A DNA stretch of 64,000 nt from an uncultured Verrucomicrobiae bacterium (GCA_963718565.1 OY970364.1:1792001-1856000), one strand, 5' to 3'; numbered from the stretch's first letter, positions 173 to 57,986 are shown. A program made the numbers and translations. The notes: generated by a model from the letters alone, not told the origin.

Positions 173-988
173 TTATCCCATGTTGTCGGGATGCCATCGC
201 CTGATGACGAATCGAGGGCCTTCGCTTTCGTCCCATTGATTGACAGGTTTTCGATCTTTCATGATTTCAATCAGGCGCTCAGAGAACTTGGCTTTAATGA
301 CTCCTTTTGGAGCTCTGCTTTCGATCGTTGTTTTTTCATCGAAAACGCCGACAACGTGTCCTTCCCAGACAATCAAATCAAGGTCGTTGACTTTCTTAAT
401 GATCCCGCTAACACTCAACCCCTCGATGGGAACAGCCTTCCCAAAATGGATAAGACTTGAAGTATTGCGCGGCGTATAACCTGCGGAGACGTAGTGAAAT
501 AGCCCAGAGCAATCCAGTCCTTTGAATTTCCATGTGTCTTGAATGAGAGCAGACAGTTGATGCAAAGGGGTTCGGCTCGGATACAATAGTGGTACTAAAT
601 CGATCCCTTGCGGCCAATTTCCTCCCCAAACATAACGCGTTCCCATGAGCCGTTCTAATTTTGAAAGGATTGTTGGCATGGCAGGAATCACAATCGTTCT
701 ATTTGCAGGAATATGAGGAACAAGTTGAACAAAGCGGGCATCGATATAGTAATTGCCTCCATAGTCATATTCATGAGTGCTTATGCGCCAGATGGAAGAT
801 TGGGCGACCCGTTCGAATAGTTGTATTTTGGCGTGAGGGAAGAGTATGGTTTCAACCGTTCTCATCAGACCTTGTTCGTCTAGAGGAAGAGTATCGCCGT
901 CCTTGCCTCCAAAACAATGAGGAACATGAGGAGTGTTAAAGACTGGAGTGGGCCATTGTGTGACTGCATATTGCATGTTAACACTCAC
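173..988 (-). CDS. NlpC/P60-family cysteine peptidase
   Basis: Contains YVWGG...GLDCSGL...GHV catalytic motifs. Start placed at GTG 988 after a GGAGG SD (ATG 976 is an alternative). The ORF-track extension to 1099 is translated repeat element A. Confidence 0.75.
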   Translation of the reverse strand: MSVNMQYAVTQWPTPVFNTPHVPHCFGGKDGDTLPLDEQGLMRTVETILFPHAKIQLFERVAQSSIWRISTHEYDYGGNYYIDARFVQLVPHIPANRTIVIPAMPTILSKLERLMGTRYVWGGNWPQGIDLVPLLYPSRTPLHQLSALIQDTWKFKGLDCSGLFHYVSAGYTPRNTSSLIHFGKAVPIEGLSVSGIIKKVNDLDLIVWEGHVVGVFDEKTTIESRAPKGVIKAKFSERLIEIMKDRKPVNQWDESEGPRFVIRRWHPDNMG

Positions 989-1001
989 ATTTAACCTCCA
1001 A

Positions 1002-1260
1002 GAGGGAATTGCAAAATTTCTCGCCGCATAAAATCGCGCTTTTGGCACCTGTCGCCTTGGCGGCGGCTGCCTTCGGCCCCGGTTCGCTCCTTCGCTCACC
1101 TGCTTTGCTACTTACGAAGGTTCCCCGGACCTTCTCGTGTCTTCGCAGCCACTTATCCAAGTATGCTTTCGCCGCCGCCAACCGAACCCGCTGTGCGTGT
1201 TCTGGCAACAGGTGCCAAAATCATCAATTTTCTGCTGGCGAGGAGTTTTGCAATTCCCTC
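1002..1260. mobile_element. Palindromic MITE-like element, family A (long copy, 259 bp)
   Basis: Ends are GAGGGAATTGCAAAATTTCTCGCC ... GGCGAGGAGTTTTGCAATTCCCTC with internal hairpins. A near-identical shorter copy lies at 5198-5380, and an orphan end at 1291-1307. Confidence 0.8.
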
Positions 1261-1362
1261 TCCAAAAAAAAGACTTTTATGTTATAGAAGGGTTTTGCAA
1301 TTCCCTCTATAGACAAGACTAAGGGAGCATATTAAAAGGCGAATAAAAAGAGAATCTAATTT

Positions 1363-2991
1363 ATGGGTCGCTATTTGATCTTGATAATCAGTGTAATTTT
1401 GTTCGCGATTGGATCAGGATGTCAATCTCCGAAAAAAAGCCAGAAAGAGACCGTTTCTCAAACACTGCGGATTAACATTCAGAGTGAGCCGCAAACTTTG
1501 GACCCACGCAAAGCACGCAGCTTAAGTGGACAAACTCTTGTTCGGATGCTTTTTGAAGGGCTGACGCGCGTGAACAAAGAAGAAAAACCTGAACTTGCTC
1601 TTGCAAGCAGTGTGGACATTTCTTCTGATCTTAGGATCTATACCTTTCACTTAAAAGAGAGTGTGTGGTCAAACGGGGACTCTGTATTAGCCTCAGATTT
1701 TATTTACGCATGGAAAAAGATGCTTTCTCCTGATTTCCCTTCGGACATCGCCTTTCAGCTTTACGTGATTAAAAATGGCAAGGCTGCAAAAGAAGGAAAA
1801 GTACCCATAGATCAGATTGGCGTGAAGATCCTGAGTGATAAGACATTAGAGGTTGAACTGGAAAATCCCACGCCTTATTTTTTAGATCTGGTTGCCTGCC
1901 CCGCTTTTTTCCCCATCCCTCAAAAGGTCGATGAGCAGAATCCCTTTTGGCCTCAAAACGCTTCCACTTATGTTGGCAACGGGCCCTTTCAACTCATCGA
2001 ATGGAAACACCAAGACCATTTGACTTTGGTCAAAAATCCTCAATATTGGGATGCGCCAGCTGTTAAAATTGCATCTCTAGAGTTGCAGATGCTCCAAGAA
2101 GAGACTGAACTCAACTGTTTCGAGAAACAAAAAATTGATTGGGCGGGATCTCCACTTTCCCTATTACCTGTAGATGCTCTCGATTCATTAAGAAAAGAAA
2201 ACAAGCTCAATACCAAAGAGCTTCTTGGAACATATTTCATTCGAGTGAACACGGAAGCTTCTCCTTTTAACCATCCTTTGATGCGAAAGGCTTTTGCTCT
2301 TGCTATTTATCGGAGCGCTATCGTCGAGCATGTCACTCGCGGGGACCAGATTCCTGCAACAGGTCTTGTCCCTATTTTCTTAAAATTGCAGAAACAGCCC
2401 TATTTTCAAGATGGCGATTTAACAGAAGCGCGACGATTGTTTGATGAAGCCCTTAGAGCGCAGCAACTGACCAAAGAGAACTTGCCTGAAATTTCTCTCC
2501 TCTATCGAACAGAAGAGAGAAACCATCTGATTGCGCAAGCTATCCAACAGCAATGGTTCGAAGCCTTTGGTATCCGCGTGAAATTGCAATCTGTAGAAGG
2601 CAAAGTTTACTTCGATCGGATATCCAAACAAGACTTTCAATTGTCTTCAGGATCCTGGGTTGCCGATTTTGCTGACCCGATTAATTTTTTAGAAGTTTTC
2701 AAATTTAAAAAGAGCGGCTCGAATAATACTCTTTGGGAAAACCCTCGTTATATCGAACTTCTCGATCAATCGTCAGAAGTTATCGATTCTCAGCAACGCC
2801 TTGAACTCCTTGCGCAAAGTGAACAAATATTGATCGATGAAATGCCAATGATTCCAATTTTTTATTACACTATGCTATATGTCAATCAACCCCACCTAAA
2901 AGATGTTGTCCTGTCCTCGATGGGGCAAATCGATTTTAAATGGGCCTATTTTGAAGAGGCAGGAAAATGGATTGCACAAGAGGAGAATTAA
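1363..2991 (+). CDS. oppA: Oligopeptide ABC transporter substrate-binding lipoprotein
   Basis: Lipobox GSGC; family-5 solute-binding motifs EPQTLDP, LFEGL, YTFHLK..WSNG, GNGPF, W.ADF.DP. Confidence 0.9.
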   Translation: MGRYLILIISVILFAIGSGCQSPKKSQKETVSQTLRINIQSEPQTLDPRKARSLSGQTLVRMLFEGLTRVNKEEKPELALASSVDISSDLRIYTFHLKESVWSNGDSVLASDFIYAWKKMLSPDFPSDIAFQLYVIKNGKAAKEGKVPIDQIGVKILSDKTLEVELENPTPYFLDLVACPAFFPIPQKVDEQNPFWPQNASTYVGNGPFQLIEWKHQDHLTLVKNPQYWDAPAVKIASLELQMLQEETELNCFEKQKIDWAGSPLSLLPVDALDSLRKENKLNTKELLGTYFIRVNTEASPFNHPLMRKAFALAIYRSAIVEHVTRGDQIPATGLVPIFLKLQKQPYFQDGDLTEARRLFDEALRAQQLTKENLPEISLLYRTEERNHLIAQAIQQQWFEAFGIRVKLQSVEGKVYFDRISKQDFQLSSGSWVADFADPINFLEVFKFKKSGSNNTLWENPRYIELLDQSSEVIDSQQRLELLAQSEQILIDEMPMIPIFYYTMLYVNQPHLKDVVLSSMGQIDFKWAYFEEAGKWIAQEEN

Positions 2992-2998
2992 GATTAAG

Positions 2999-3358
2999 AT
3001 GAATTACGTATTGACTGTCATTTTTATTTTGGCCTGCGGGATGGGTTGGGCCAATTCCGTCACTTTGATGAACAATTCCACCTATACTTTGCAGGCCACA
3101 ATTTACGATGCCAATGGAACGCTTCTTGGGCAATTTGTGCTCAATCCCAGTGATGCGACATTGTGGAGTGATAATGACGAAGATTGGGGGACTCAAAGCC
3201 AATATGCTTCCCAAACGCCCTATACGGTGAATTGGATGTGCATGAATGGAAGTGCTTATGGCACTTGTGATAATGTTGCTGCTGGAGCTGTTGTCACAGC
3301 GCAAGGTTGCGGTGGCGCTCAGGAATGTCAGCAACAGCAGCAACAGAGCCCTTATTAA
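2999..3358 (+). CDS. Small secreted 4-Cys protein, paralog 1 (unknown function)
   Basis: Signal-peptide-like N-terminus MNYVLTVIFILACGMGWA; homologous to the next ORF (TPYTV.W.C..G..Y..CD.V..GA.V.AQ.C.GA..C). Confidence 0.7.
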   Translation: MNYVLTVIFILACGMGWANSVTLMNNSTYTLQATIYDANGTLLGQFVLNPSDATLWSDNDEDWGTQSQYASQTPYTVNWMCMNGSAYGTCDNVAAGAVVTAQGCGGAQECQQQQQQSPY

Positions 3359-3392
3359 CCCTGTTAGGAGGAATGTGGCTTTTATACCGGAA

Positions 3393-3842
3393 ATGATTCA
3401 AAAGCTGGCTTTTTTGATATTTGGCCTGATGATTTCCCCTTGTTTGCTTCATGCCGGCACAGTGCGTTTAGTCAACAATAGCCCTTATGATCTTCGAGCC
3501 GCTATCCGTGGCAGCGATGGCTCTTTTTTAGGAGAACTTGTCATCAAAGCCCAAAAAGAAACTGTTTGGACAGATACTTATGGGCAATATGGACTATATG
3601 GCGGTGCTAATGCGTCCGCAAACTCAGATTATCAATCAAAGACTCCTTATACTGTGTTGTGGTATTGCCTTGATGGAGCGGATTATGCCGTGTGTGATAC
3701 CGTTTCCACAGGGGCTCTTGTCATGGCGCAAACTTGTTCAGGCGCGCGGATGTGCAAGCCGAACCGAAGGGAAGTGTATCCACAGGAGTCCGAAGGAAAT
3801 TATCTCTATAAAAATCCAAAGACCCCGCCTCTAAATCAATAG
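3393..3842 (+). CDS. Small secreted 4-Cys protein, paralog 2 (unknown function)
   Basis: Signal peptide MIQKLAFLIFGLMISPCLLHA; shares the motif pattern of 2999-3358. Confidence 0.7.
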   Translation: MIQKLAFLIFGLMISPCLLHAGTVRLVNNSPYDLRAAIRGSDGSFLGELVIKAQKETVWTDTYGQYGLYGGANASANSDYQSKTPYTVLWYCLDGADYAVCDTVSTGALVMAQTCSGARMCKPNRREVYPQESEGNYLYKNPKTPPLNQ

Positions 3843-3916
3843 TGGGATGTTCAATAGACATCTTGCATAACCTCATTCACCTGCTAAAATCGCCCTTTTC
3901 CCGGCCTTTTGATCCT

Positions 3917-5416
3917 CTAATGGATAGGGTCATGGTTGAGTTGTGGTTTTCCTTTTTCGTAGGTCACTTTCTTTAGAAAAATGCCGTCACTTGTATATAA
4001 CGAGGCGATTCCTTTTCCCGACTCGATCTTTGAGACGATTTTTTTGTCTCCCTTTTTATAATAAGAAGCTTTGATCAACAGATCATTTTCGTACTCTTCG
4101 ACTAGCATGAGATCTCCATTTTTATACCAAGCAAAACAGACCCCTTGCTTTTTGCTGCCGTTGAATTCGCGCTGGCTTTCAATTTGGCCATTGGAATACC
4201 AGGTTTTTACTTGTCCTTGGATCCGATCCTCATTCCAATGTAAACAGAGCTTTGGCATAGGCCGCTGGCCTTTTTCTGAAAGGTAATATTCCCATTCCTC
4301 GCCATTCTTTTTTCCATCTTTGACGACGTAGGAGCATTTAAGAGTTCCATTAGAATAAAACAACTCGACATCGCCTTCAGGAATGCCGCATGAAAAATGG
4401 ATGAGTGCGTAAAGTTGGCCCTCTTTAAATTGGGCTTGCTTGCCTTGTCCGTCGTTAATTTCGGCGATGGATGTTCCATCGGGAGCATAATAAGAAGCGT
4501 GGATCAGACGGCCATGTTCATAAAATTCTTTCGACAAGAGATGCTTAGGCGTCCAAAAAGCAGTGGCGCTTCCCTCTTTTTCTCCATTGACATGAGGAAT
4601 CTCTTCTAGAAGATTTCCATGTTCATCGAAAACTTGAAGCATGCCATGGATCTCTCCTTGGCGATAAGGGATCATTTTTTGCAGCTGGCCATTGGGGAAA
4701 AAATATTGTGCCGGATTGTGCAAAAGACCCTTTTCATAAGAAAATTCAGCAATCAGGTTTCCTTGATCATCCCAAACTTTGCTTGCCCCTTCAAATACCC
4801 AAGTGGCTTGGGCGAGATCGTGGATGTCTGCCATCCCTTCGATAAGATGGGTTTCAATTTTCATACGGCCATTAGGAAACCATTCTTGATAAATCCCATG
4901 CGCCCTGCCGTCTACAGCTTCCAGGTACTGCCAAAGGTGACCGTTATCGTGGTAACTCGTAATTTTGGACAGACTCTGACCGGCAGAATTTCGACCGAAG
5001 ACGCGCAGTACTTTTTGATAGGGCTGCGGTGTGGAAAAATTCACAGATTTATAACTGGAAAGGCGCTCTTTATTGCTCACTGTCTCTGTGAACCCATTGC
5101 GGTCGACGATTTGCATGCTGACAACAGAATCGCTTTTGTCAGAGGAAGTTCTGGAAGCGCAGCCGGAAAGAACCGCCAGGCTAATCAGTAGAGTTAAGAG
5201 GGAATTGCAAAACTCTTCGCCGCATAAAATCGCGCTTTTGGCACCTGTCGCCTTGGCGGCGGCTCTTCTACTTATCCAAGTATGCTTTCGCTGCCGCCAA
5301 CCGAACCCGCTGTGCGGGTTCTGGCAACAGGTGCCAAAATCATCGATTTTCTGCTGGCGAGGAGTTTTGCAATTCCCTCCTAATTGTAAAATTCGACGCC
5401 AAAAGATTTTTCTCAT
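3917..5416 (-). CDS. MORN-variant repeat (YwqK-like) lipoprotein with an in-frame element-A insertion in its signal peptide
   Basis: Repeated G..HG....[WY][FY].NG units; lipobox LSGC; about 62 codons near the N-terminus derive from element A. Confidence 0.75.
   Translation of the reverse strand: MRKIFWRRILQLGGNCKTPRQQKIDDFGTCCQNPHSGFGWRQRKHTWISRRAAAKATGAKSAILCGEEFCNSLLTLLISLAVLSGCASRTSSDKSDSVVSMQIVDRNGFTETVSNKERLSSYKSVNFSTPQPYQKVLRVFGRNSAGQSLSKITSYHDNGHLWQYLEAVDGRAHGIYQEWFPNGRMKIETHLIEGMADIHDLAQATWVFEGASKVWDDQGNLIAEFSYEKGLLHNPAQYFFPNGQLQKMIPYRQGEIHGMLQVFDEHGNLLEEIPHVNGEKEGSATAFWTPKHLLSKEFYEHGRLIHASYYAPDGTSIAEINDGQGKQAQFKEGQLYALIHFSCGIPEGDVELFYSNGTLKCSYVVKDGKKNGEEWEYYLSEKGQRPMPKLCLHWNEDRIQGQVKTWYSNGQIESQREFNGSKKQGVCFAWYKNGDLMLVEEYENDLLIKASYYKKGDKKIVSKIESGKGIASLYTSDGIFLKKVTYEKGKPQLNHDPIH
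5198..5380. mobile_element. Family A element (183 bp) with TAA target duplication, inside a CDS
   Basis: TAA(5195-5197) GAGGGAATTGCAAAACTC...GAGTTTTGCAATTCCCTCC TAA(5381-5383). Confidence 0.85.
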
Positions 5417-6048
5417 CGTAGGGCCTCTAAGTTTTCTCGTTTGATCAATTGCATCGTCACGACATACACTTTTTCATTGGGCAAGAGCTCTTTCCTCGCC
5501 AACTTGAAGTCTTGGATGATCAATTGTGATCGGCCCTCTTTGGGACCGTATGGCCAAATCGTGACTCCCTCGATCAGGCAGAGAAGTTGTTTAAGATCTT
5601 CTTCATTGAGCTCAATAGGTTGTTGCTGTTTTTCCTCAGTTTCTCGAAAAAGCTCATTGGCGCGGATCTGTTCTTCGGAAAAGCGCAGGCGATTACCCCC
5701 ATCCTTGAGCTGTTGTAGACGTTTGGCAATCTGTTCTTCTTCAGGACCTTCTAATTGAATCGTCTCGAGTTTTTTGATTTCAGGCAGTAGAAAAGTCAAT
5801 GTTTCCACGTGCTTGTCGAGATAGTGTGGATCGGGATTTTTCAAAGCGGACAAGAGAATGCTTTCCTTTTTTTGACTTTCTTGCATGACGACCATTTTTG
5901 TATGAATTCTTTCCATTTCCTTTTCGAGTTGTTCTAATTTTTGCAATCCAAAGAAGAAGTTAAAAAGAAAAATTAAAAAAGGAACAGGGGCTGCTACCAA
6001 TACAAGGCAAAGGGAAAAGGGAGAAAGCTTACAAGAGAATTTCCTCAT
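5413..6048 (-). CDS. Membrane-anchored coiled-coil protein (possible T2SS/pilus assembly-platform component)
   Basis: N-terminal TM helix followed by a coiled coil; 4-bp overlaps with both neighbours. Confidence 0.55.
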   Translation of the reverse strand: MRKFSCKLSPFSLCLVLVAAPVPFLIFLFNFFFGLQKLEQLEKEMERIHTKMVVMQESQKKESILLSALKNPDPHYLDKHVETLTFLLPEIKKLETIQLEGPEEEQIAKRLQQLKDGGNRLRFSEEQIRANELFRETEEKQQQPIELNEEDLKQLLCLIEGVTIWPYGPKEGRSQLIIQDFKLARKELLPNEKVYVVTMQLIKRENLEALR

Positions 6049-7572: not shown

Positions 7573-9588
7573 TCAAGGGCAGGAGACGTCCGCCTCTGTA
7601 AGAGTGATAGTCCCCGATGCGTTAAACGGCGCGCCAACATTTCCCACAAGAGGCGACAAAATGAATGTGCTGCCACCTGTTTCATTTAAAGAATAACCCG
7701 ACGAACTAGAATTATCAGTAAGTTGTAGCTGAAGTGTAGAGGAGGCATCCGATGTTGATAAAACGCCAAAAGAAGCGGCGTTAGTTATCGTATTGTTCTC
7801 TACATTCGCTGAAACCAAAGCACTAAATAAGCTGTCCACAGTTATTCCTACGAACAGTGCTTGATTAATTTGATTTTCAGAAATTGTACCACATACATTA
7901 GTTCCTGAAAAACCTCCTGAAAGATTAATTCCATTATCGCAATTGATGATCAAATTATTTTGGATACTAGCATTAGTATTAGCTCCGAGAGTCTGCGAGT
8001 CAACAGTAATCCCAAAACCATTGTTCACAACGGTATTTTGCACAAGATTATTTGTAACAACAATGGAAGAAGTCACAGGAAGGGTAAAATTAAAAATACT
8101 AATGCCGTTGATTAAACCGGCCATAGTTCCATTTGTTGTTACTGTGTCGATGATGTTATTTTCAATCATCAAATTTCCCTGGCAATTATGCAGAGAAATC
8201 GCTCCGCTGATCACCGCGCAATTGGTGAAGATATTGTTGTGAATATAAGTATTAGTAATTCCTAAAAAAGTGGGAAGAACCGAGGGATCGCCGCCATTAA
8301 TTCCATTCCCGCCATTCGTATTGGAAATGTAGAGACCTGAAACTTCACAATCATTGCCTAAATTGACGCCGGATGTATTGAGGATTGCATTTGTGATGTT
8401 GGGAAAGGTTTTGCTTTGGGCGGGCACTGTAATCGAACCTTGCGTCGTTGGGAATACTTGGCTGATCCCTGATCCGAAAAGCTTTTGCCCGTCCTGCAAT
8501 ACAATGCCCGCATCCATCCCTTGGGTTGTGCCATTCCCCGGAAATACATAAATGGCATCCCATGGAGAGGAGGCATTCTGGGCCTGAACCAGTGTCGGGA
8601 AGGGACTTTCAATGCTTCCAGCAGAGCTGCTCGTATTGTCTACGAACCACACTTGCCAAGGGTTGCCTGTTGCAGGATTGATCGCTTTTTCCCTTCTTGT
8701 CACTTTTTTTACCACTGGAATTTCAAAGCGATAAGGGGCAAATGCAGCACGTGAAAGAGCAAGATTGGTTTGGGATGAGCACTCTTTTCCTCGGCTTTGC
8801 AACCTTTTTCCAAAAGGAAAGTTAAAAGCAATTGTCCCTTGTACAACGCTGCGGAAAAGATGGTCATAAGAATAAGAAGCTTCTAAAGCAATGTACTCTT
8901 TATAACGGCCGAGCAGACGTGTTTTGCCTCCCCAGGAGGAAGCATGCGGAGAAGAAAAATAATAGGGGCCAACTCCTGCATAGAGATCATATTTTGTACT
9001 TTGTGTGAGATGAGCACCCACTTCCGCATCTCCTCCAATCATCACATCTCTCTGCTTAGCCTTTAAGATAACGTGATGTCCCTTAAAACTGTCGAAATCA
9101 AAATGGTACTTGTGACTTTTCTGATTACCAATGGGGAAATACCCATTCATACGGTATTCCATGCGGTTACCGAGTAATTCGATGCCAGGGCTCAATTGTT
9201 GAGGAGTCAGATGATGCCTGTCTTGGCGCACATCGTAATAGAGATAATAGCCTAACACGTGGCCAATCGAACAGAGAAGGGAGCGGCCGCCCACTCCAAC
9301 ATTTCCACCAAACTTGCCGTTATCAAAAACATGTCCGCGCAGATCGATAAAAGGCATGAAAGAGGTATTGGCATTGTAAATACCGAATCCTTCTAACGTG
9401 GTATACCCCTCTTGATATCCTACTCCTCTTGCTTCCGTATGTCGTAGCCCCGCATGCATGACGTGAAATTGTTTTTTATTTTCTGGGGAAGGATTGCTCT
9501 TTGGAGATGTTGGCTTTTTTTTCGGCTCATCAACGAAGGCTTGATTGCATAACAATGAAGAGAGAAGAAGAAGTGAATAAAATTTCAT
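7573..9588 (-). CDS. Inverse-autotransporter beta-barrel protein with beta-helix passenger (tandem pair, copy 1)
   Basis: Signal peptide; IAT-like barrel motifs (N.G.G.R, YYD, Q...G.E.LG, NGY.P.G); Asn-rich I.NN.I parallel beta-helix repeats. Confidence 0.75.
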   Translation of the reverse strand: MKFYSLLLLSSLLCNQAFVDEPKKKPTSPKSNPSPENKKQFHVMHAGLRHTEARGVGYQEGYTTLEGFGIYNANTSFMPFIDLRGHVFDNGKFGGNVGVGGRSLLCSIGHVLGYYLYYDVRQDRHHLTPQQLSPGIELLGNRMEYRMNGYFPIGNQKSHKYHFDFDSFKGHHVILKAKQRDVMIGGDAEVGAHLTQSTKYDLYAGVGPYYFSSPHASSWGGKTRLLGRYKEYIALEASYSYDHLFRSVVQGTIAFNFPFGKRLQSRGKECSSQTNLALSRAAFAPYRFEIPVVKKVTRREKAINPATGNPWQVWFVDNTSSSAGSIESPFPTLVQAQNASSPWDAIYVFPGNGTTQGMDAGIVLQDGQKLFGSGISQVFPTTQGSITVPAQSKTFPNITNAILNTSGVNLGNDCEVSGLYISNTNGGNGINGGDPSVLPTFLGITNTYIHNNIFTNCAVISGAISLHNCQGNLMIENNIIDTVTTNGTMAGLINGISIFNFTLPVTSSIVVTNNLVQNTVVNNGFGITVDSQTLGANTNASIQNNLIINCDNGINLSGGFSGTNVCGTISENQINQALFVGITVDSLFSALVSANVENNTITNAASFGVLSTSDASSTLQLQLTDNSSSSGYSLNETGGSTFILSPLVGNVGAPFNASGTITLTEADVSCP

Positions 9589-9699: not shown

Positions 9700-11784
9700 T
9701 CATTGTCCAGGGCAGGATACGTCCGTCTCTGTTAGAGTAATAGTCCCCGCTATGTTAAACGGTGCTCCAACATTTCCCACAAGAGCTGACAAGATGAATT
9801 CACTGGATCCTGTTTGAATTAAAGAATACCCTGACGAACTAGAATTATCAGTAAGTTGTACATGGAGTGTAGAGGAACTATTCGATATTGCTAAAACGCC
9901 AGAAACAGCTGCGTTAGTTATCGTATTGTTCTCTACATTTGCTGAAACCAAAGAACTTAATGTGCTTACCATATTTACTCCTGCAGACAGCGCTTGATTA
10001 ATTTGATTTCCAGAAATTGTAGCACATATATTAGTTCCTGTATTACTTGCGAAAATATGAATTCCGTTAACACAATTAGTGATCAAATTATTTTGGATAC
10101 TAGCATTAATATTATCTCCGAGACCCTGCGAATCAACAGCAATCCCAGCACCTCCATGCCCATTCGCAGCGGTATTTTGCACAATATTATTTGTAATAAC
10201 AACGGAAGAAGTCACAGGAAGGTGAAAATTAAAAATATTAATGCCGCTGATTAAACCGCCTAGGCTTCCAATTGTTACTGTGTCGATGGTGTTATTTTCA
10301 ATCATCAAATTTCCCTGGCAATTATGCAGAGAAATCGCTCCATTGGTCACCGTACAGTTGGTGAAGATATTGTCGTGAATATAAGTATTAGTGATTCCTA
10401 AAAAAGTGGGAAGAACCGAGGGATCGCCGCCATTAATTCCATTCCCGCCATTCGTATTGGAAATGTAGAGACCTGAAACTTCACAATCATTGCCTAAATT
10501 GACGCCGGATGTATTGAGAATTGCATTTGTGATGTTGGGAAAGGTTTTGCTTTGGGCGGGCACTGTAATCGAACCTTGCGTCGTTGGGAATACTTGGCTG
10601 ATCCCTGATCCGAAAAGCTTTTGCCCGTCCTGCAATACAATGCCCGCATCCATCCCTTGAGTTGTGCCATTCCCCGGAAATACATAAATGGCATCCCATG
10701 GAGAGGAGGCATTCTGGGCCTGAACCAGTGTCGGGAAGGGACTTTCAATGCTTCCAGCAGAGCTGCTCGTATTGTCTACGAACCACACTTGCCAAGGATT
10801 GCCCGTTGCAGGATTGATCGCTTTTTCCCTTCTTGTCACTTTTTTTACCACTGGAATTTCAAAGCGATAAGGGGCAAATGCAGCACGTGAAAGAGCAAGA
10901 TTGGTTTGGGATGAGCACTCTTTCCCTCGGCTTTGCAACCTTTTTCCAAAAGGAAAGTTAAAAGCAATTGTCCCTTGTACAACGCTGCGGAAAAGATGGT
11001 CATAAGAATAAGAAGCTTCTAAAGCAATGTACTCTTTATAACGGCCGAGCAGACGTGTTTTGCCTCCCCAAGAGGAAGCATGCGGAGAAGAAAAATAATA
11101 GGGGCCAACCCCTGCATAGAGATCATATTTTGTACTTTGTGTGAGATGAGCACCCACTTCCGCATCTCCTCCAATCATCACATCTCTCTGCTTAGCCTTT
11201 AAGATAACGTGATGTCCCTTAAAACTGTCGAAATCAAAATGGTACTTGTGACTTTTCTGATTACCAATGGGGAAATACCCATTCATACGGTATTCCATGC
11301 GGTTACCGAGTAATTCGATGCCAGGGCTCAATTGTTGAGGAGTCAGATGATGCCTGTCTTGGCGCACATCGTAATAGAGATAATAGCCTAACACGTGGCC
11401 AATCGAACAGAGAAGGGAGCGGCCGCCCACTCCAACATTTCCACCAAACTTGCCGTTATCAAAAACATGTCCGCGCAGATCGATAAAAGGCATGAAAGAG
11501 GTATTGGCATTGTAAATACCGAATCCTTCTAACGTGGTATACCCCTCTTGATATCCTACTCCTCTTGCTTCCGTATGTCGTAGCCCCGCATGCATGACGT
11601 GAAATTGTTTTTTATTTTCTGGGGAAGGATTGCTCTTTGGAGATGTTGGCTTTTTTTTCGGCTCATCAACATGTCCGAGCAGATCGGTAAAAGGCATGAA
11701 AGAGATATTGGCATTGTAAATACCGAAAACGAATGCCTGATTGCATAAAAATGAAGAGAGAAGAAGAAGTGAATAAAATTTCAT
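9700..11784 (-). CDS. Inverse-autotransporter beta-barrel protein with beta-helix passenger (tandem pair, copy 2)
   Basis: About 1.3 kb near-identical to copy 1 at a 2136-bp offset; divergent C-terminal part; extra duplicated N-terminal segment. Confidence 0.75.
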   Translation of the reverse strand: MKFYSLLLLSSFLCNQAFVFGIYNANISFMPFTDLLGHVDEPKKKPTSPKSNPSPENKKQFHVMHAGLRHTEARGVGYQEGYTTLEGFGIYNANTSFMPFIDLRGHVFDNGKFGGNVGVGGRSLLCSIGHVLGYYLYYDVRQDRHHLTPQQLSPGIELLGNRMEYRMNGYFPIGNQKSHKYHFDFDSFKGHHVILKAKQRDVMIGGDAEVGAHLTQSTKYDLYAGVGPYYFSSPHASSWGGKTRLLGRYKEYIALEASYSYDHLFRSVVQGTIAFNFPFGKRLQSRGKECSSQTNLALSRAAFAPYRFEIPVVKKVTRREKAINPATGNPWQVWFVDNTSSSAGSIESPFPTLVQAQNASSPWDAIYVFPGNGTTQGMDAGIVLQDGQKLFGSGISQVFPTTQGSITVPAQSKTFPNITNAILNTSGVNLGNDCEVSGLYISNTNGGNGINGGDPSVLPTFLGITNTYIHDNIFTNCTVTNGAISLHNCQGNLMIENNTIDTVTIGSLGGLISGINIFNFHLPVTSSVVITNNIVQNTAANGHGGAGIAVDSQGLGDNINASIQNNLITNCVNGIHIFASNTGTNICATISGNQINQALSAGVNMVSTLSSLVSANVENNTITNAAVSGVLAISNSSSTLHVQLTDNSSSSGYSLIQTGSSEFILSALVGNVGAPFNIAGTITLTETDVSCPGQ

Positions 11785-27321: not shown

Positions 27322-27466
27322 GTTTGGTGAATTTTGGTGCGTCCTCAAAAACCTATGGCAAGCACTGAATGTTATTTGGATCCATGCCGGGCTTTGCATT
27401 TATCGATCTCAATCAGGCATGGATCAAAATGGTCTTCAACTTTTGCCATGAGTTTTTAAGGATGTA
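27304..27466. repeat. Family D end followed by a ~130-bp imperfect hairpin module
   Basis: TATACGGCACGCGGTTAGGTTTGGTGAATTTTG (also at 46170-46202), then arms GTCCTCAAAAACCTATGGCAA...GGATCCATGCC / GGCATGGATC...TTGCCATGAGTTTTTAAGGAT. Confidence 0.75.
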
Positions 27467-27467
27467 T

Positions 27468-29128
27468 TAAAAAATGTTCTACAGAACATAGTGGCCTTAG
27501 AGTCAGTCCACAAACAGGTTTGTGGACTGACCCTTATCGCCAAAGAGTTTGTTTGGGGGAAAGTTCAATGATTTATTGGTTCAATAGCTTATGTGCTTTG
27601 ACGCTGACCAGCGCAGGTATTTTGGCTGATGAAAATCTTTTGCTTCAAACTGAGGAGATCTCTTCTCATCAAGCTGAGGAATCTGTTCCCCAACAAACGC
27701 TAGAAAAAGAAAGATGTAAAGGCCCTCATCATCGATGGGCTTCTGTGCGTTATACGACCCCTGAAGGTATCGGCTACAAGAACGGCTACACTACCTTGGA
27801 AGGCTTTTTTACTCCTAGGAATCTGCCCAAAGATGCCTGGATTCCCTTTTTGGATCTGCGCGGGCATGTCTTCGATAACGGTAAACTGGCTGCAAATGCA
27901 GGATTAGGACTGCGTTACTTGGCCCGTTCACGTGTATGGGGAGTGAATGCTTATTATGATTATCGCAACACCGAACGCCAGCACTACAATCAAGTCGCTG
28001 TAGGGCTTGAGTCCTTGGGAAGAGTTTGGGATTTCCGCATGAATGGTTACCTTCCTGTAGGCAGAAAGCAAAGCCCATTTTCTCATCCCAAATTTGTTGC
28101 TTTTGAAGAACACGCCATGCTCATCAAAAGAAAGCGCAATTTTGCGATGAAAGGCGCCAATGCTGAAATGGGAGTCCATGTCGATCATTTTGAAAACGCA
28201 CCCCTCTACTTTGCAGCAGGCCCTTACTATTTGACTGGAGTAGGGGCGAGCACTTGGGGAGGGGAACTACGCGGCGCTGTCGATTTATTCCGCCGTTATC
28301 TTCGCATAGAAGGCAACGTCTCCTATGACCATTTCTTTGGATGGGTCGGTCAGGCGCAAGCCAGCATTAATATCCCTTTTGGAAGAAGATGGAAAGTAGA
28401 AAAAAAAGAGGATCGATCCTGTTCAAAAATGGCAACTTTATATGCGCGCGCCATGCAACGAGTCGATCGCTATGAAATCATTCCCGTTGGCAAACAAAAA
28501 GTTACCTCGCGTGCCATTGATCCTGCGACAGGAAAACCCTGGTTCTTCTGGTTCGTGGACAATACGAGCTCTTCAGCTGGAACGTTTGAAGATCCCTTCC
28601 CCACGCTTTTGGCTGCACAGAATGCTTCCCTCCCAAACCAAGGCATCTACGTATTCCCTGGAGATGGAACCACTCGAGGGATGAATAGCGGGATTACCCT
28701 GCAAAATGGGCAGATATTCTTAGGCGCCGGCGTACAGCAATCTGTGGTAACGGCAGCGGGGACCGTCGTCGTCCCTCCACTCGCATCCAGTTCGCCCAAT
28801 ATCACCAATACCGCTGGCAACATTGTGACTTTAGCAAATAATAATGCCGTTTCAGGGTTTAATGTGTTGGTACAACACGGATATGGTCTTGTAGGAACTG
28901 GGATCTCCAATCTTTTTGCCGGTCAGAATGCCTTTATCGCAAGCAACCCCAACTTCGATGGAATCAATTTGGTTAATCCTTCTGGACAAGTCTTTATCAG
29001 TGATAGTTCTTTTACTGGATTTTCTTGTACTAATATAGGGCACCACGGCAATGGAATCTATCTGGAGCTTGATGCTGGTTCCATGCTTGCTAGTTTGAGT
29101 ATCACGGGAAATTCTTTGAGTCACTTTA
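27468..29128 (+). repeat. Left arm of a 1661-bp near-perfect inverted repeat (partner 35635-37295)
   Basis: Both boundaries were matched by eye and give equal lengths. Only one amino-acid difference (Y/H) is seen between the encoded proteins in this span. Confidence 0.9.
27500..27533. mobile_element. Collapsed family B element (34 bp) with TTA duplication
   Basis: TTA GAGTCAGTCCACAAAC-AG-GTTTGTGGACTGACCC TTA; mirror copy at about 37230-37263. Confidence 0.8.
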
Positions 29129-29868
29129 CTAAAACCAACACTAGTTTCGGCGGTCATGGTGTTTTCTTGAACATGAATGGGGGTGCCTTAGGTGCAGCGA
29201 TAGTTTTCAATAATGCTTTTAGCAACTTCTCTAACAGCTCTCAGGCAATTAATATCCTTTTTGATGGTGTATTCGATAATTTAAATATCTCAAGTTGCTC
29301 TTTTAATAATATGAATCAGAGTAACGCCATTTTCATATCCATCGACTCTGGCGTTCTGGACAACCTAAACATATCGGATTGTCTCTTTAGCAATATCTCA
29401 GGAGCCATTGCTATTAGGGCCGATATAGATGACGGTGTTATCAATCATTTCAATGTTTCTAACAATGCCTTCGAAAATCTGAGTAATAGCCATGCCTGTA
29501 CATTTCAACTTGGGCTTAATGCGATCAACGACCTTAGCGTATCAGGAAATTCTTTCAATAATTTCAATTCTTCGAGCACTGCCATTTCTTATACCCTGTT
29601 CTTTCCAGGAAGTGCTTCACTGCAGGTGCTAGATAATACTTTTATTGGCGGCAACAATGAAGGGACTGGTTACGCAGCCTATATTCAGACGTATGGCTCA
29701 TTGTGTTTAGAATTTATTGGCAATAGCGCGACGCCTGCTAATAACCCAATTCCCTATTCGTTACTTAATTTGGGGGGGACATTCAATAGGACTACTGGAT
29801 CAGACAACACGACAAATATAGGCCAATTCCAATTAACAGACGTAAACCCACCGGGCTCTTGTCCTTAA
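27568..29868 (+). CDS. Inverse-autotransporter beta-barrel protein with beta-helix passenger (inverted pair, variant A)
   Basis: Signal peptide MIYWFNSLCALTLTSAGILA; barrel motifs GVNAYYD, Q..VGLESLG, DFRMNGYLPVG; LDNLNIS beta-helix repeats. Confidence 0.78.
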   Translation: MIYWFNSLCALTLTSAGILADENLLLQTEEISSHQAEESVPQQTLEKERCKGPHHRWASVRYTTPEGIGYKNGYTTLEGFFTPRNLPKDAWIPFLDLRGHVFDNGKLAANAGLGLRYLARSRVWGVNAYYDYRNTERQHYNQVAVGLESLGRVWDFRMNGYLPVGRKQSPFSHPKFVAFEEHAMLIKRKRNFAMKGANAEMGVHVDHFENAPLYFAAGPYYLTGVGASTWGGELRGAVDLFRRYLRIEGNVSYDHFFGWVGQAQASINIPFGRRWKVEKKEDRSCSKMATLYARAMQRVDRYEIIPVGKQKVTSRAIDPATGKPWFFWFVDNTSSSAGTFEDPFPTLLAAQNASLPNQGIYVFPGDGTTRGMNSGITLQNGQIFLGAGVQQSVVTAAGTVVVPPLASSSPNITNTAGNIVTLANNNAVSGFNVLVQHGYGLVGTGISNLFAGQNAFIASNPNFDGINLVNPSGQVFISDSSFTGFSCTNIGHHGNGIYLELDAGSMLASLSITGNSLSHFTKTNTSFGGHGVFLNMNGGALGAAIVFNNAFSNFSNSSQAINILFDGVFDNLNISSCSFNNMNQSNAIFISIDSGVLDNLNISDCLFSNISGAIAIRADIDDGVINHFNVSNNAFENLSNSHACTFQLGLNAINDLSVSGNSFNNFNSSSTAISYTLFFPGSASLQVLDNTFIGGNNEGTGYAAYIQTYGSLCLEFIGNSATPANNPIPYSLLNLGGTFNRTTGSDNTTNIGQFQLTDVNPPGSCP

Positions 29869-34897: not shown

Positions 34898-37195
34898 TTA
34901 AGGACAAGAGCCCGGTGGATTTACGTCTGTTAATTGGAACTGGCCTATATTTGTCGTATTGTCCGACCCAGTAGTCCTATTGAATGTCCCCCCAGAATTC
35001 GCGAAGAAATAAGGAGTGGGGCTACTAGCAGGCGTCGCGCTATTGCCAATAAATTCTAAACACAATGAGCCAGACGTCTGAATATCGGCTGCGTAACCAC
35101 TCACTTCATTGTTGCCGCCAATAAAAGTATTATCTAGCACCTGCAATGAAGCACTTTCTGGAGAGAACAGGTGATAAAAAATGGCAGTGCTCGAAGAATT
35201 GAGATTATAGAAAGAATTTCCTGATACGCTAAGGTCTTTGATCGGGTTAAGGGCAAGTTGAAATACAACGCCCATACTACTACTACTCAGATTTTCGAAG
35301 GCATTGTTAGAAACATTGAAATGATTGATAACACCATCTACAGAGGCATTAATAGCGCTGGATACTGAGAAATTGGTAAATAAACAATCCGATATGTTTA
35401 GGTTGTCCAGAATGCCAGAGTCGGTGGATATGAAAATGGCGCTAGTCTGACTGATGTTATTAAAAGAGCAACTTGAGATATTTAAATTATCGAGTGTACC
35501 ATTAACGACGACATAAATTGACATAGAGAAGTGGGAGAAATTATTAAAAGCATTATCGGAAATGATCGCTGCACCTAAGGCACCCCCATTCATGTTCAAG
35601 AAAACACCATTACCACCGTTACCATTGATTTCAATAAAGTGACTCAAAGAATTTCCCGTGATACTCAAACTAGCAAGCATGGAACCAGCATCAAGCTCCA
35701 GATAGATTCCATTGCCGTGGTGCCCTATATTAGTACAAGAAAATCCAGTAAAAGAACTATCACTGATAAAGACTTGTCCAGAAGGATTAACCAAATTGAT
35801 TCCATCGAAGTTGGGGTTGCTTGCGATAAAGGCATTCTGACCGGCAAAAAGATTGGAGATCCCAGTTCCTACAAGACCATATCCGTGTTGTACCAACACA
35901 TTAAACCCTGAAACGGCATTATTATTTGCTAAAGTCACAATGTTGCCAGCGGTATTGGTGATATTGGGCGAACTGGATGCGAGTGGAGGGACGACGACGG
36001 TCCCCGCTGCCGTTACCACAGATTGCTGTACGCCGGCGCCTAAGAATATCTGCCCATTTTGCAGGGTAATCCCGCTATTCATCCCTCGAGTGGTTCCATC
36101 TCCAGGGAATACGTAGATGCCTTGGTTTGGGAGGGAAGCATTCTGTGCAGCCAAAAGCGTGGGGAAGGGATCTTCAAACGTTCCAGCTGAAGAGCTCGTA
36201 TTGTCCACGAACCAGAAGAACCAGGGTTTTCCTGTCGCAGGATCAATGGCACGCGAGGTAACTTTTTGTTTGCCAACGGGAATGATTTCATAGCGATCGA
36301 CTCGTTGCATGGCGCGCGCATATAAAGTTGCCATTTTTGAACAGGATCGATCCTCTTTTTTTTCTACTTTCCATCTTCTTCCAAAAGGGATATTAATGCT
36401 GGCTTGCGCCTGACCGACCCATCCAAAGAAATGGTCATAGGAGACGTTGCCTTCTATGCGAAGATAACGGCGGAATAAATCGACAGCGCCGCGTAGTTCC
36501 CCTCCCCAAGTGCTCGCCCCTACTCCAGTCAAATAGTAAGGGCCTGCTGCAAAGTAGAGGGGTGCGTTTTCAAAATGATCGACATGGACTCCCATTTCAG
36601 CATTGGCGCCTTTCATCGCAAAATTGCGCTTTCTTTTGATGAGCATGGCGTGTTCTTCAAAAGCAACAAATTTGGGATGAGAAAATGGGCTTTGCTTTCT
36701 GCCTACAGGAAGGTAACCATTCATGCGGAAATCCCAAACTCTTCCCAAGGACTCAAGCCCTACAGCGACTTGATTGTAGTGCTGGCGTTCGGTGTTGCGA
36801 TAATCATAATAAGCATTCACTCCCCATACACGTGAACGGGCCAAGTAACGCAGTCCTAATCCTGCATTTGCAGCCAGTTTACCGTTATCGAAGACATGCC
36901 CGCGCAGATCCAAAAAGGGAATCCAGGCATCTTTGGGCAGATTCCTAGGAGTAAAAAAGCCTTCCAAGGTAGTGTAGCCGTTCTTGTAGCCGATACCTTC
37001 AGGGGTCGTATAACGCACAGAAGCCCATCGATGATGAGGGCCTTTACATCTTTCTTTTTCTAGCGTTTGTTGGGGAACAGATTCCTCAGCTTGATGAGAA
37101 GAGATCTCCTCAGTTTGAAGCAAAAGATTTTCATCAGCCAAAATACCTGCGCTGGTCAGCGTCAAAGCACATAAGCTATTGAACCAATGAATCAT
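34898..37195 (-). CDS. Inverse-autotransporter beta-barrel protein with beta-helix passenger (inverted pair, variant B)
   Basis: First ~520 aa essentially identical to variant A; C-terminal ~245 aa divergent in periodic patches. Confidence 0.78.
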   Translation of the reverse strand: MIHWFNSLCALTLTSAGILADENLLLQTEEISSHQAEESVPQQTLEKERCKGPHHRWASVRYTTPEGIGYKNGYTTLEGFFTPRNLPKDAWIPFLDLRGHVFDNGKLAANAGLGLRYLARSRVWGVNAYYDYRNTERQHYNQVAVGLESLGRVWDFRMNGYLPVGRKQSPFSHPKFVAFEEHAMLIKRKRNFAMKGANAEMGVHVDHFENAPLYFAAGPYYLTGVGASTWGGELRGAVDLFRRYLRIEGNVSYDHFFGWVGQAQASINIPFGRRWKVEKKEDRSCSKMATLYARAMQRVDRYEIIPVGKQKVTSRAIDPATGKPWFFWFVDNTSSSAGTFEDPFPTLLAAQNASLPNQGIYVFPGDGTTRGMNSGITLQNGQIFLGAGVQQSVVTAAGTVVVPPLASSSPNITNTAGNIVTLANNNAVSGFNVLVQHGYGLVGTGISNLFAGQNAFIASNPNFDGINLVNPSGQVFISDSSFTGFSCTNIGHHGNGIYLELDAGSMLASLSITGNSLSHFIEINGNGGNGVFLNMNGGALGAAIISDNAFNNFSHFSMSIYVVVNGTLDNLNISSCSFNNISQTSAIFISTDSGILDNLNISDCLFTNFSVSSAINASVDGVINHFNVSNNAFENLSSSSMGVVFQLALNPIKDLSVSGNSFYNLNSSSTAIFYHLFSPESASLQVLDNTFIGGNNEVSGYAADIQTSGSLCLEFIGNSATPASSPTPYFFANSGGTFNRTTGSDNTTNIGQFQLTDVNPPGSCP

Positions 37196-37295
37196 TGAAC
37201 TTTCCCCCAAACAAACTCTTTGGCGATAAGGGTCAGTCCACAAACCTGTTTGTGGACTGACTCTAAGGCCACTATGTTCTGTAGAACATTTTTTA
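35635..37295 (-). repeat. Right arm of the 1661-bp inverted repeat
   Basis: Reverse complement of 27468-29128. Confidence 0.9.
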
Positions 37296-37327
37296 GTAAA
37301 GTTTTCTGACTAATTTCCCCCAGAAAA

Positions 37328-55632: not shown

Positions 55633-56357
55633 CAAAGCACTGATTTGACAGGGTATAGGAAATTAAGAAGAATTTTTTAAACTTAGTAAAGGTTTTTAAA
55701 GTGTCTCTTTTTCACATGTCGGGGACAAAGCACTGCGTGTCCTTTATCCCCTGCTGGCCCCCTTGGGACTCATCTCGCTTTGCCAAATCGCGTGCTCGTC
55801 GGGGGCCGTGCAAAGCACTGATTTGACAGGGTATAGGAAATTAAGAAGAATTTTTTAAACTTAGTAAAGGTTTTTAAAGTGTCTCTTTTTCACATGTCGG
55901 GGACAAAGCACTGCGTGTCCTTTATCCCCTGCTGGCCCCCTTGGGACTCATCTCGCTTTGCCAAATCGCGTGCTCGTCGGGGGCCGTGCAAAGCACTGAT
56001 TTGACAGGGTATAGGAAATTAAGAAGAATTTTTTAAACTTAGTAAAGGTTTTTAAAGTGTCTCTTTTTCACATGTCGGGGACAAAGCACTGCGTGTCCTT
56101 TATCCCCTGCTGGCCCCCTTGGGACTCATCTCGCTTTGCCAAATCGCGTGCTCGTCGGGGGCCGTGCAAAGCACTGATTTGACAGGGTATAGGAAATTAA
56201 GAAGAATTTTTTAAACTTAGTAAAGGTTTTTAAAGTGTCTCTTTTTCACATGTCGGGGACAAAGCACTGCGTGTCCTTTATCCCCTGCTGGCCCCCTTGG
56301 GACTCATCTCGCTTTGCCAAATCGCGTGCTCGTCGGGGGGCCGTGCAAAGCACTGAT
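55633..56357 (+). repeat. Tandem array of four ~178-bp units
   Basis: CAAAGCACTGAT recurs at 55633, 55811, 55989, 56167 and 56346; units appear identical except one extra G in the last. Confidence 0.95.
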
Positions 56358-56532
56358 CCCCCCATGCGCTGACCGCGCTCTCCTGCGCTGCGATTTTACT
56401 TTGCGATCTGAGTCCATCGGCTGCTCATGCGCTCACTTCCCGCCCTGGCTTCGCCCTTTCGGGCGGGTCCCTTTTCGCGTCGACTCGCAGAGCAATTCTG
56501 AATGCAAAACAACCCCGGTCTTCTCTTATCAA

Positions 56533-57777: not shown

Positions 57778-57986
57778 GCAGCGCAGGAGAGCGCGGTCAG
57801 CGCGTGGGGGGATCAGTGCTTTGCACGGCCCCTCGACGAGCACGCGATTTGGCAAAGCGAGCTGAGTCTCAAGGGGCCAGCAGGGGACATTGGACACGAA
57901 GTGCTGTGTCCCCGACATGTGAAAAAGAAGCACTTTAAAAACTTTTAGTGAATTTAAAAAAATCTTCTTAATTTCCTGCGCCCTGA
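57778..57986 (-). repeat. Diverged inverted copy of the 178-bp unit plus flank
   Basis: GCAGCGCAGGAGAGCGCGGTCAGCGC..ATCAGTGCTTTGCACGGCCCC...TTAATTTCCTGCGCCCTG is the reverse complement of ~56183-56391 with substitutions. Confidence 0.85.

Follow-up and report, generated by a model that had tools for sequence, protein, structure and literature searches.

A MITE-like element lodged in frame in the signal peptide of a lipoprotein gene, and frame-keeping among its relatives in a chlamydia-like genome

In a stretch of 64,000 nucleotides from an uncultured Verrucomicrobiae bacterium (GCA_963718565.1 OY970364.1:1792001-1856000; the window), a mobile element of the MITE type was found in codon 12/13 of a gene for a MORN-repeat lipoprotein, and we put at roughly 70% the probability that this young copy is read through in frame, that the product is exported, and that the mature lipoprotein is unchanged. 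The features are collected in Table 1, where positions are those of the window; positions in the complete genome are marked as such in the text. The label chlamydia-like, as used here, comes from the preliminary description of the window and from the names of public MAGs that carry the end motif of the element.

Table 1. Lipoprotein locus with the element copy in its leader, and the long copy of the same family elsewhere in the window
Feature	Position	Strand	Remark
Upstream gene, 211 aa	5413..6048	-	No Pfam family; stop overlaps the lipoprotein start
MORN-repeat lipoprotein gene, 499 codons including the insert	3917..5416	-	Pfam MORN_2, E 6e-21
Codons 1-12, MRKIFWRRILQL	5381..5416	-	Native start and basic n-region, split from the rest of the leader
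Codons 6-12, WRRILQL	5381..5401	-	Candidate scar of an older copy; collinear with the right end of the copy in sister species G004
Target-site duplication, copy 2, CTAA	5380..5383	.	
Right terminal inverted repeat, GAGTTTTGCAATTCCCTC	5362..5379	+	
MITE copy, 182 bp	5198..5379	.	Gene reads right to left, in hydrophilic basic frame 'A'
Left terminal inverted repeat, GAGGGAATTGCAAAACTC	5198..5215	+	
Target-site duplication, copy 1, TTAA	5194..5197	.	
Remaining hydrophobic region and lipobox, LTLLISLAVLSG-C	5159..5197	-	Cys86 at 5159-5161; hydropathy 2.38
Long copy, 259 bp, intergenic	1002..1260	.	TCCAA on both sides

The 18-bp ends of the copy are perfectly inverted, with an imperfect extension to about 33 nt, and the two flanks differ in one base of four. 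Together the 182 bp of the element and the 4 bp of the duplication add 186 bp, i.e., 62 codons, and no stop is created, so the reading frame survives. The preliminary description had proposed an element of 183 bp with a 3-bp TAA duplication; the total of 186 bp was right and the division was not, while the 62 extra codons without a stop that it reported are exactly what the open reading frame at 3917..5416 contains. When folded as RNA, the element reaches -122.2 kcal/mol (z = -15), a value that none of 200 shuffled sequences equalled. Three of its six frames are free of stops, a number that was reached or exceeded in 26 of 5000 shuffled sequences and by 4% of 182-mers drawn at random from the genome. 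No Rfam match was obtained over positions 800-5700 of the window at E values up to 0.1, and ARAGORN found no tRNA in the element region. The copy is 98.4% identical to the family consensus, and because it is so young, the intact reading frame at this locus alone proves little.

The ATG of the lipoprotein overlaps the stop of the gene upstream (ATGA), and the order within the open reading frame is MRKIFWRRILQL, 62 insert residues and then TLLISLAVLSGC (TLLISLAVLSG-C), the insertion lying after codon 12. A lipobox consensus with an invariant Cys behind a hydrophobic core is the hallmark of a type II signal peptide, and here the lipobox L-S-G-C, with Cys86, follows the hydrophobic core. The native n-region is basic (MRKIFWRR), as is the insert, which has five Lys and five Arg residues against two Asp and two Glu. 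It had been stated earlier that the insert precedes the hydrophobic region; most of the core and the lipobox do follow it, but it splits the hydrophobic stretch ILQLTLLISLAVL and detaches ILQL. These four residues and two arginines were thereby moved away from the edge of the core, and a Glu-Glu pair now stands eight residues ahead of it; these changes may weaken Sec targeting. With the insert the leader is 85 residues long, and without it 23, the usual length in orthologs being 13-18. We also looked for start codons that would place the beginning of the gene downstream of the element: there is no in-frame ATG, GTG or TTG within the insert or ahead of the lipobox, and the first one lies behind the lipobox, so a downstream start would give a protein that is not exported. 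The genome encodes both LspA (PF01252, 105 bits) and Lgt (PF01790, 213 bits). It also has a gene for RNase III, and since the predicted mRNA hairpin begins 37 nt past the ATG, expression could be lowered.

In the reading that we prefer, the MITE jumped into codon 12/13 and produced a 4-bp AT-rich target duplication. Translation would most likely start at the native ATG that overlaps the upstream stop, and the ribosome would read through 62 strongly basic residues (net +6), giving a prolipoprotein with an 85-residue leader in which the hydrophobic core and the L-S-G-C lipobox are intact. Lgt and LspA would then modify it and cut at Cys86, leaving the mature protein as before, and the insertion would be nearly neutral. 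The copy would persist because the cytoplasmic n-region tolerates additional basic sequence, and because any loss that was not exact would disrupt the gene. That Sec export can accommodate a long N-terminal extension in front of an ordinary signal core is seen from the ESPR of autotransporters; unlike the insert here, which is mobile, the ESPR is a conserved functional motif.

The genome is a single contig of 2,284,058 bp, in which copies were counted with a 15-base end (up to two mismatches) and a bounded length of 178-265 bp. There are 185 left and 175 right end motifs, and 47 copies are bounded by both ends. The short class has 27 members (23 of 182 bp, one of 181 bp, two of 183 bp and one of 187 bp) and the long class 18 (seven of 257 bp, seven of 258 bp and four of 259 bp), while two further copies are 250 and 262 bp long. 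Of the 47 copies, 38 have the same 4 bp on both sides and eight show one mismatch between the flanks, and in the last one the duplication is 5 bp. Copies compared in the correct orientation are 95-99% identical to the consensus, and in this comparison, from which four mis-oriented rows were excluded, the 257-bp class was not clearly older than the others. With inverted ends, a duplication of fixed length, short size, absence of a transposase, dispersed copies and empty sites, the family is, judged by its sequence, a classical MITE, i.e., a non-autonomous DNA transposon. Within the genus, seven of 19 genomes have matches at E<=1e-10, this genome included (six of the 18 others); the other genomes hold 1-11 matches each, 69-85% alike, and only this genome has dozens at 95-99%. 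The family, being diverged elsewhere and near-identical here, is therefore old, with a recent burst in this genome.

The long form equals the short form plus a core of 75 bp, and this core, which is not shared with a tRNA, recurs at 78-85% identity in a second repeat family of about 270 bp with different ends (genome positions 731156, 762118, 1290390, 1633133, 1755249, 2200351, 2234179, 2254154 and 2258618). A core common to two families with different ends indicates that these small elements are modular. Neither the multi-copy repeats of at least 600 bp in this genome nor the end pairs 700-2600 bp apart included an autonomous partner with matching ends. An ISAs1 segment at genome 1624273-1626012 (L155) was considered as the parent and rejected, as the ends of this IS are different: ISAs1 proper (NF033564, E 2e-81) occupies positions 73-1373 of the 1740-bp segment, and of its 13 copies, all with an identical transposase, the other 12 match only those positions. 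The GAGGGAATTGC ends thus belong to a different small element, host to one IS copy that jumped in. This outer element is about 440 bp long with GAGGGAATTGCAAAACTA ends, and pieces of it occur about 20 times.

In the long copy at 1002-1260, two plus-strand frames are fully open and each minus-strand frame has at least one stop, the longest run being 73 codons; the preliminary description had called this copy stop-free over long frames on both strands, which agrees with our reading of the plus strand only. This copy is followed, 18 bp further on, by a solo right end of the element (1262-1309). The exact 18-base end was also found in at least 87 stretches of public MAGs (loci L051-L130), with many small elements, and among the matches listed the MAGs are labelled Chlamydiae, Verrucomicrobia, Victivallales, Acidobacteria and others. 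The left and right sub-terminal motifs differ from one another, and both are conserved across the phyla of the listed MAGs. The window contains other repeats as well. Two inverted segments of 1674 bp (27465-29138 and 35625-37298), 100% complementary, flank about 6.5 kb with further inverted pairs inside. A tandem array with a 178-bp period at 55633-56466 has three identical overlapping copies of 300 nt and a fourth at 67%, and inverted pieces related to it lie at 57778-57985. Duplicated segments at 7573-8435 and 9706-10571, about 2.1 kb apart, are 83-97% alike.

Copies within genes number 15 of the 47, and all of them lie inside long open reading frames with recognisable families or N-termini. 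Every one is open in the frame of its host, for which the chance expectation, given three open frames of six, is 0.5^15 = 3e-5. When each copy was removed in silico, no full copy was found to break its gene with a stop. The copy at genome 1090436 replaces the last 12 codons of a TadA-like open reading frame, i.e., its C-terminal tail. Three candidates for gene-breaking copies (genome 25637, 451267 and 2114366) were rejected, since they lie just upstream of the true starts of prs, a membrane protein and rpsL. Length is filtered along with frame: all seven 257-bp copies are genic (257 + 4 = 261, a multiple of three) against none of the 11 copies of 258 or 259 bp (Fisher p 3e-5), and all eight genic short copies have exactly 182 bp. 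The 257-bp copies carry a common 2-base deletion signature, and one of them keeps its length by a compensating pair of changes.

Ten of the 15 genic copies are leader insertions, situated 1-12 codons past the nearest start, with a hydrophobic stretch (hydropathy 1.85-2.54) following them. Besides the MORN-repeat lipoprotein, the hosts are a solute-binding protein, an FKBP protein, a gluconolactonase-like protein, PBP4, two glycosyltransferases, a Legionella_OMP-type protein and two unknown proteins. The five internal insertions are in MenF, a SET protein, an Opp-type ATPase, MutY and an RluA-type synthase (hydropathy 0.71-1.65); the numbers are small, and the leader and internal classes were set by hydropathy and by eye after the data had been seen. 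The earlier expectation that a genome-wide count would reveal many in-frame gene insertions holds, and most of them fall in export leaders. Among insertions within 25 codons of a start, 10 of 11 are in proteins with a hydrophobic leader. The peptides of the three open frames are all net basic (+11, +6 and +6), and one frame holds a membrane-like stretch (hydropathy 2.55) while the values of the other two, 0.20 and 0.52, mark them as hydrophilic. Eight of the 10 insertions in leaders are read in the hydrophobic frame, against none of the five internal insertions (p 0.007); the lipoprotein uses a hydrophilic frame. Unless the peptide is made, frame and protein context should not be linked in this way, so the link is indirect evidence of translation, and it suggests that the inserts are translated and that selection sees the peptide.

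Of the 31 intergenic copies, about 11 precede the start of an open reading frame by no more than 10 codons (e.g., 25637, 451267, 2114366, 519527 and 1793002 in the genome), and thus part of the leader enrichment may reflect a landing preference. The hairpins of such copies, e.g., those before prs and rpsL, would sit in the 5' UTR near the ribosome-binding site. The target duplications are AT-rich, as judged by eye. Empty sites were found in orthologs of the outer-membrane protein and Opp-type ATPase genes (four or five relatives), and no ortholog of the solute-binding protein was found at E 1e-30 in five relatives. A protein database search with the 62-residue insert peptide, in which only longer proteins were considered, gave seven matches, five of them from the same genome. 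Two of the matches (P0006 and P0007) are shortened copies in frame, one of them close to the N-terminus of a TsaB-like protein and the other within the leader of a DUF1343 protein of this genome, and another (P0004) has a related element peptide in the middle of a PBP4 homolog from another source. In a chlamydial MAG (L102), a 164-bp element with the same ends is placed in frame between MIRLIRFFTL and a signal-like LLFFATTSALCFAQD, which looks like another leader insertion in another genome.

Orthologs of the lipoprotein are present in all 41 related genomes. The N-termini were read by eye at 19 loci, 18 of them foreign, taking the nearest Met as the start (a twentieth locus was cut), and in all 19 a Cys follows a hydrophobic stretch. 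Uninterrupted leaders of 13-18 residues, e.g., MRKIFLSLILAVLCG-C, were found in 16 of the 18 orthologs. The empty site predicted by the preliminary description is therefore present, and relatives that would share the same segment, which it had named as evidence to the contrary, were not seen among these 16. The closest relative, the sister species G004, has a 185-bp relative of the element in the same leader at another codon, in the opposite orientation to the copy described here (alignment score 211 vs 63) and with an open frame. This insert has degenerate ends, shares only 79-82% identity with the other G004 copies and is therefore old, although its frame has stayed open. Between the mature proteins of the two species dS is 0.64 and dN/dS 0.11; the gene is thus under purifying selection while it carries leader inserts. 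In a third species (G006), an unrelated 163-bp element with a TA duplication was inserted after codon 2 and adds 165 bp, i.e., 55 codons; that genome has at least eight full-length copies of this repeat, which has no match in the present genome or in G004 at E 1e-15.

The codons of WRRILQL are absent from the 16 empty orthologs, and over this region 20 of 25 bases agree with the collinear right end of the copy in G004. WRRILQL is probably what remains of the right end of an earlier copy of this family, and we infer that in the present lineage this older copy may have been trimmed by an in-frame deletion of 168 bp, with the present copy landing at the tip of the scar. With a candidate relic and hits in two other species, the leader is, on this comparison, not simply neutral ground that was hit once.

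The main rival explanation is that the insertion crippled the gene, which would then be a very young pseudogene or strongly down-regulated, with the long leader or the hairpin blocking export or expression. The copy, being only 1.6% off the consensus, has had little time in which decay could show, the hairpin of -122 kcal/mol meets a genome with RNase III, and acidic residues have come close to a hydrophobic core that lost a part. Despite this, we consider it unlikely, since all the genic copies are in frame and their frame correlates with protein context, since G004 kept an old insert in the same leader over a mature part with low dN/dS, and since that leader also tolerated a different insertion of 165 bp in G006. 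An explanation by target choice alone, in which a preference for AT-rich DNA near gene starts brings the element into leaders, and not a better tolerance of inserts there, could draw on the AT-rich duplications and on the intergenic copies just upstream of starts. It does not account for the filters on frame and length, nor for the confinement of the hydrophobic frame to leader insertions, and the near-start insertions fall almost always (10 of 11) in proteins with hydrophobic leaders; as the complete explanation it is quite improbable, while both effects may act together.

It is more improbable still that the insert has been co-opted, with the hairpin throttling translation or the basic peptide serving as a regulated leader extension. 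A very stable structure, a leader hit repeatedly in three species and three open frames that are all net basic would fit; against it, the copy is young and near-identical to dozens in unrelated places, 16 of 18 orthologs do without an insert, and the inserts of the three species differ in sequence. An assembly artefact, i.e., a repeat misplaced into the gene, has hardly any probability in our estimation. Repeats do break short-read assemblies, and the contigs of four public metagenome runs over 4600-5900 stop at the ends of the element, none bridging flank and element; equally, none of these contigs joins across an empty site. The genome itself is a single 2.28-Mb contig, and a chimeric join would not create a proper target duplication together with an exact in-frame addition of 186 bp, which counts against mis-assembly.

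Rickettsia palindromic elements (RPEs; Ogata et al. 2000, 2002) are, according to the review PMC10969869, hairpin repeats with many in-frame copies in unrelated genes of an obligate intracellular bacterium. The preliminary description had proposed an RPE-like selfish element, and the way of working is indeed alike: a short, hairpin-forming mobile repeat with many in-frame genic copies, by which a peptide is added without breaking the gene. The element here differs in its classical MITE anatomy, with clear inverted ends and a 4-bp target duplication, in its presence in a chlamydia-like genome, and in that two thirds of its genic copies are in export leaders. This comparison concerns the way of working only, and membership is not claimed. 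A literature search for Rickettsia palindromic elements together with Chlamydiae gave, judged by title, only Rickettsia or Orientia genome papers.

The traits of bacterial MITEs given in the relevant parts of PMC10969869 and of the report on Cardinium MITECca01 (PMC9769881), namely inverted ends, a target duplication, a length below 300 bp, no transposase and many near-identical copies, are all found here; what sets the present family apart is that no parental IS with matching ends was found in this genome and that the genic lengths are a multiple of three minus the duplication. In Coxiella burnetii, another intracellular bacterium, QMITE1 and QMITE2 overlap genes and alter protein ends, and in the portion of PMC5896051 that describes them those in annotated functional genes are at 3' ends, whereas the insertions here are mostly at 5' ends, in leaders, the exception at a C-terminal tail being the TadA-like case. 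There is also a single in-silico case from Yersinia (PMC2759123), in which, according to the excerpt concerned, a small mobile repeat is read in frame as an N-terminal export signal; there the repeat supplies the signal, while here a native signal is split, a pattern that recurs in 10 genes and, for one gene, in three species. A Rhabdochlamydia genome paper (PMC9723776) discusses transposases, and the words MITE and palindromic are absent from it. Apart from the Yersinia case, our literature search gave no paper that describes such elements in chlamydiae or MITEs residing in signal peptides.

To go further, and tentatively, export leaders and a few other permissive sites could be refuges for MITEs that have been selected to be translatable, whose copies are slowly trimmed in frame so that scars such as WRRILQL join signal peptides, and this could be a regular source of leader evolution in chlamydia and verrucomicrobia and beyond. 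We regard this wider reading as possible and somewhat doubtful as it stands. It is suggested by lengths equal to a multiple of three minus the duplication (182+4, 257+4 and 163+2, the last in G006), by three basic stop-free frames, and by a hydrophobic frame that survives only in membrane-targeted N-termini.

Mobile repeats that add peptides in frame have so far been regarded as something peculiar to Rickettsia. That an element with classical cut-and-paste anatomy lives in this way in a chlamydia-like genome suggests that the habit arises wherever small transposons meet gene-dense genomes, and the preference for leaders offers a simple, testable rule for where genes absorb selfish DNA. For annotators, very long 'signal peptides' may hide a transposon. 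If the wider reading is true, mobile DNA would be a regular source of leader-sequence evolution wherever the same 18-base end occurs.
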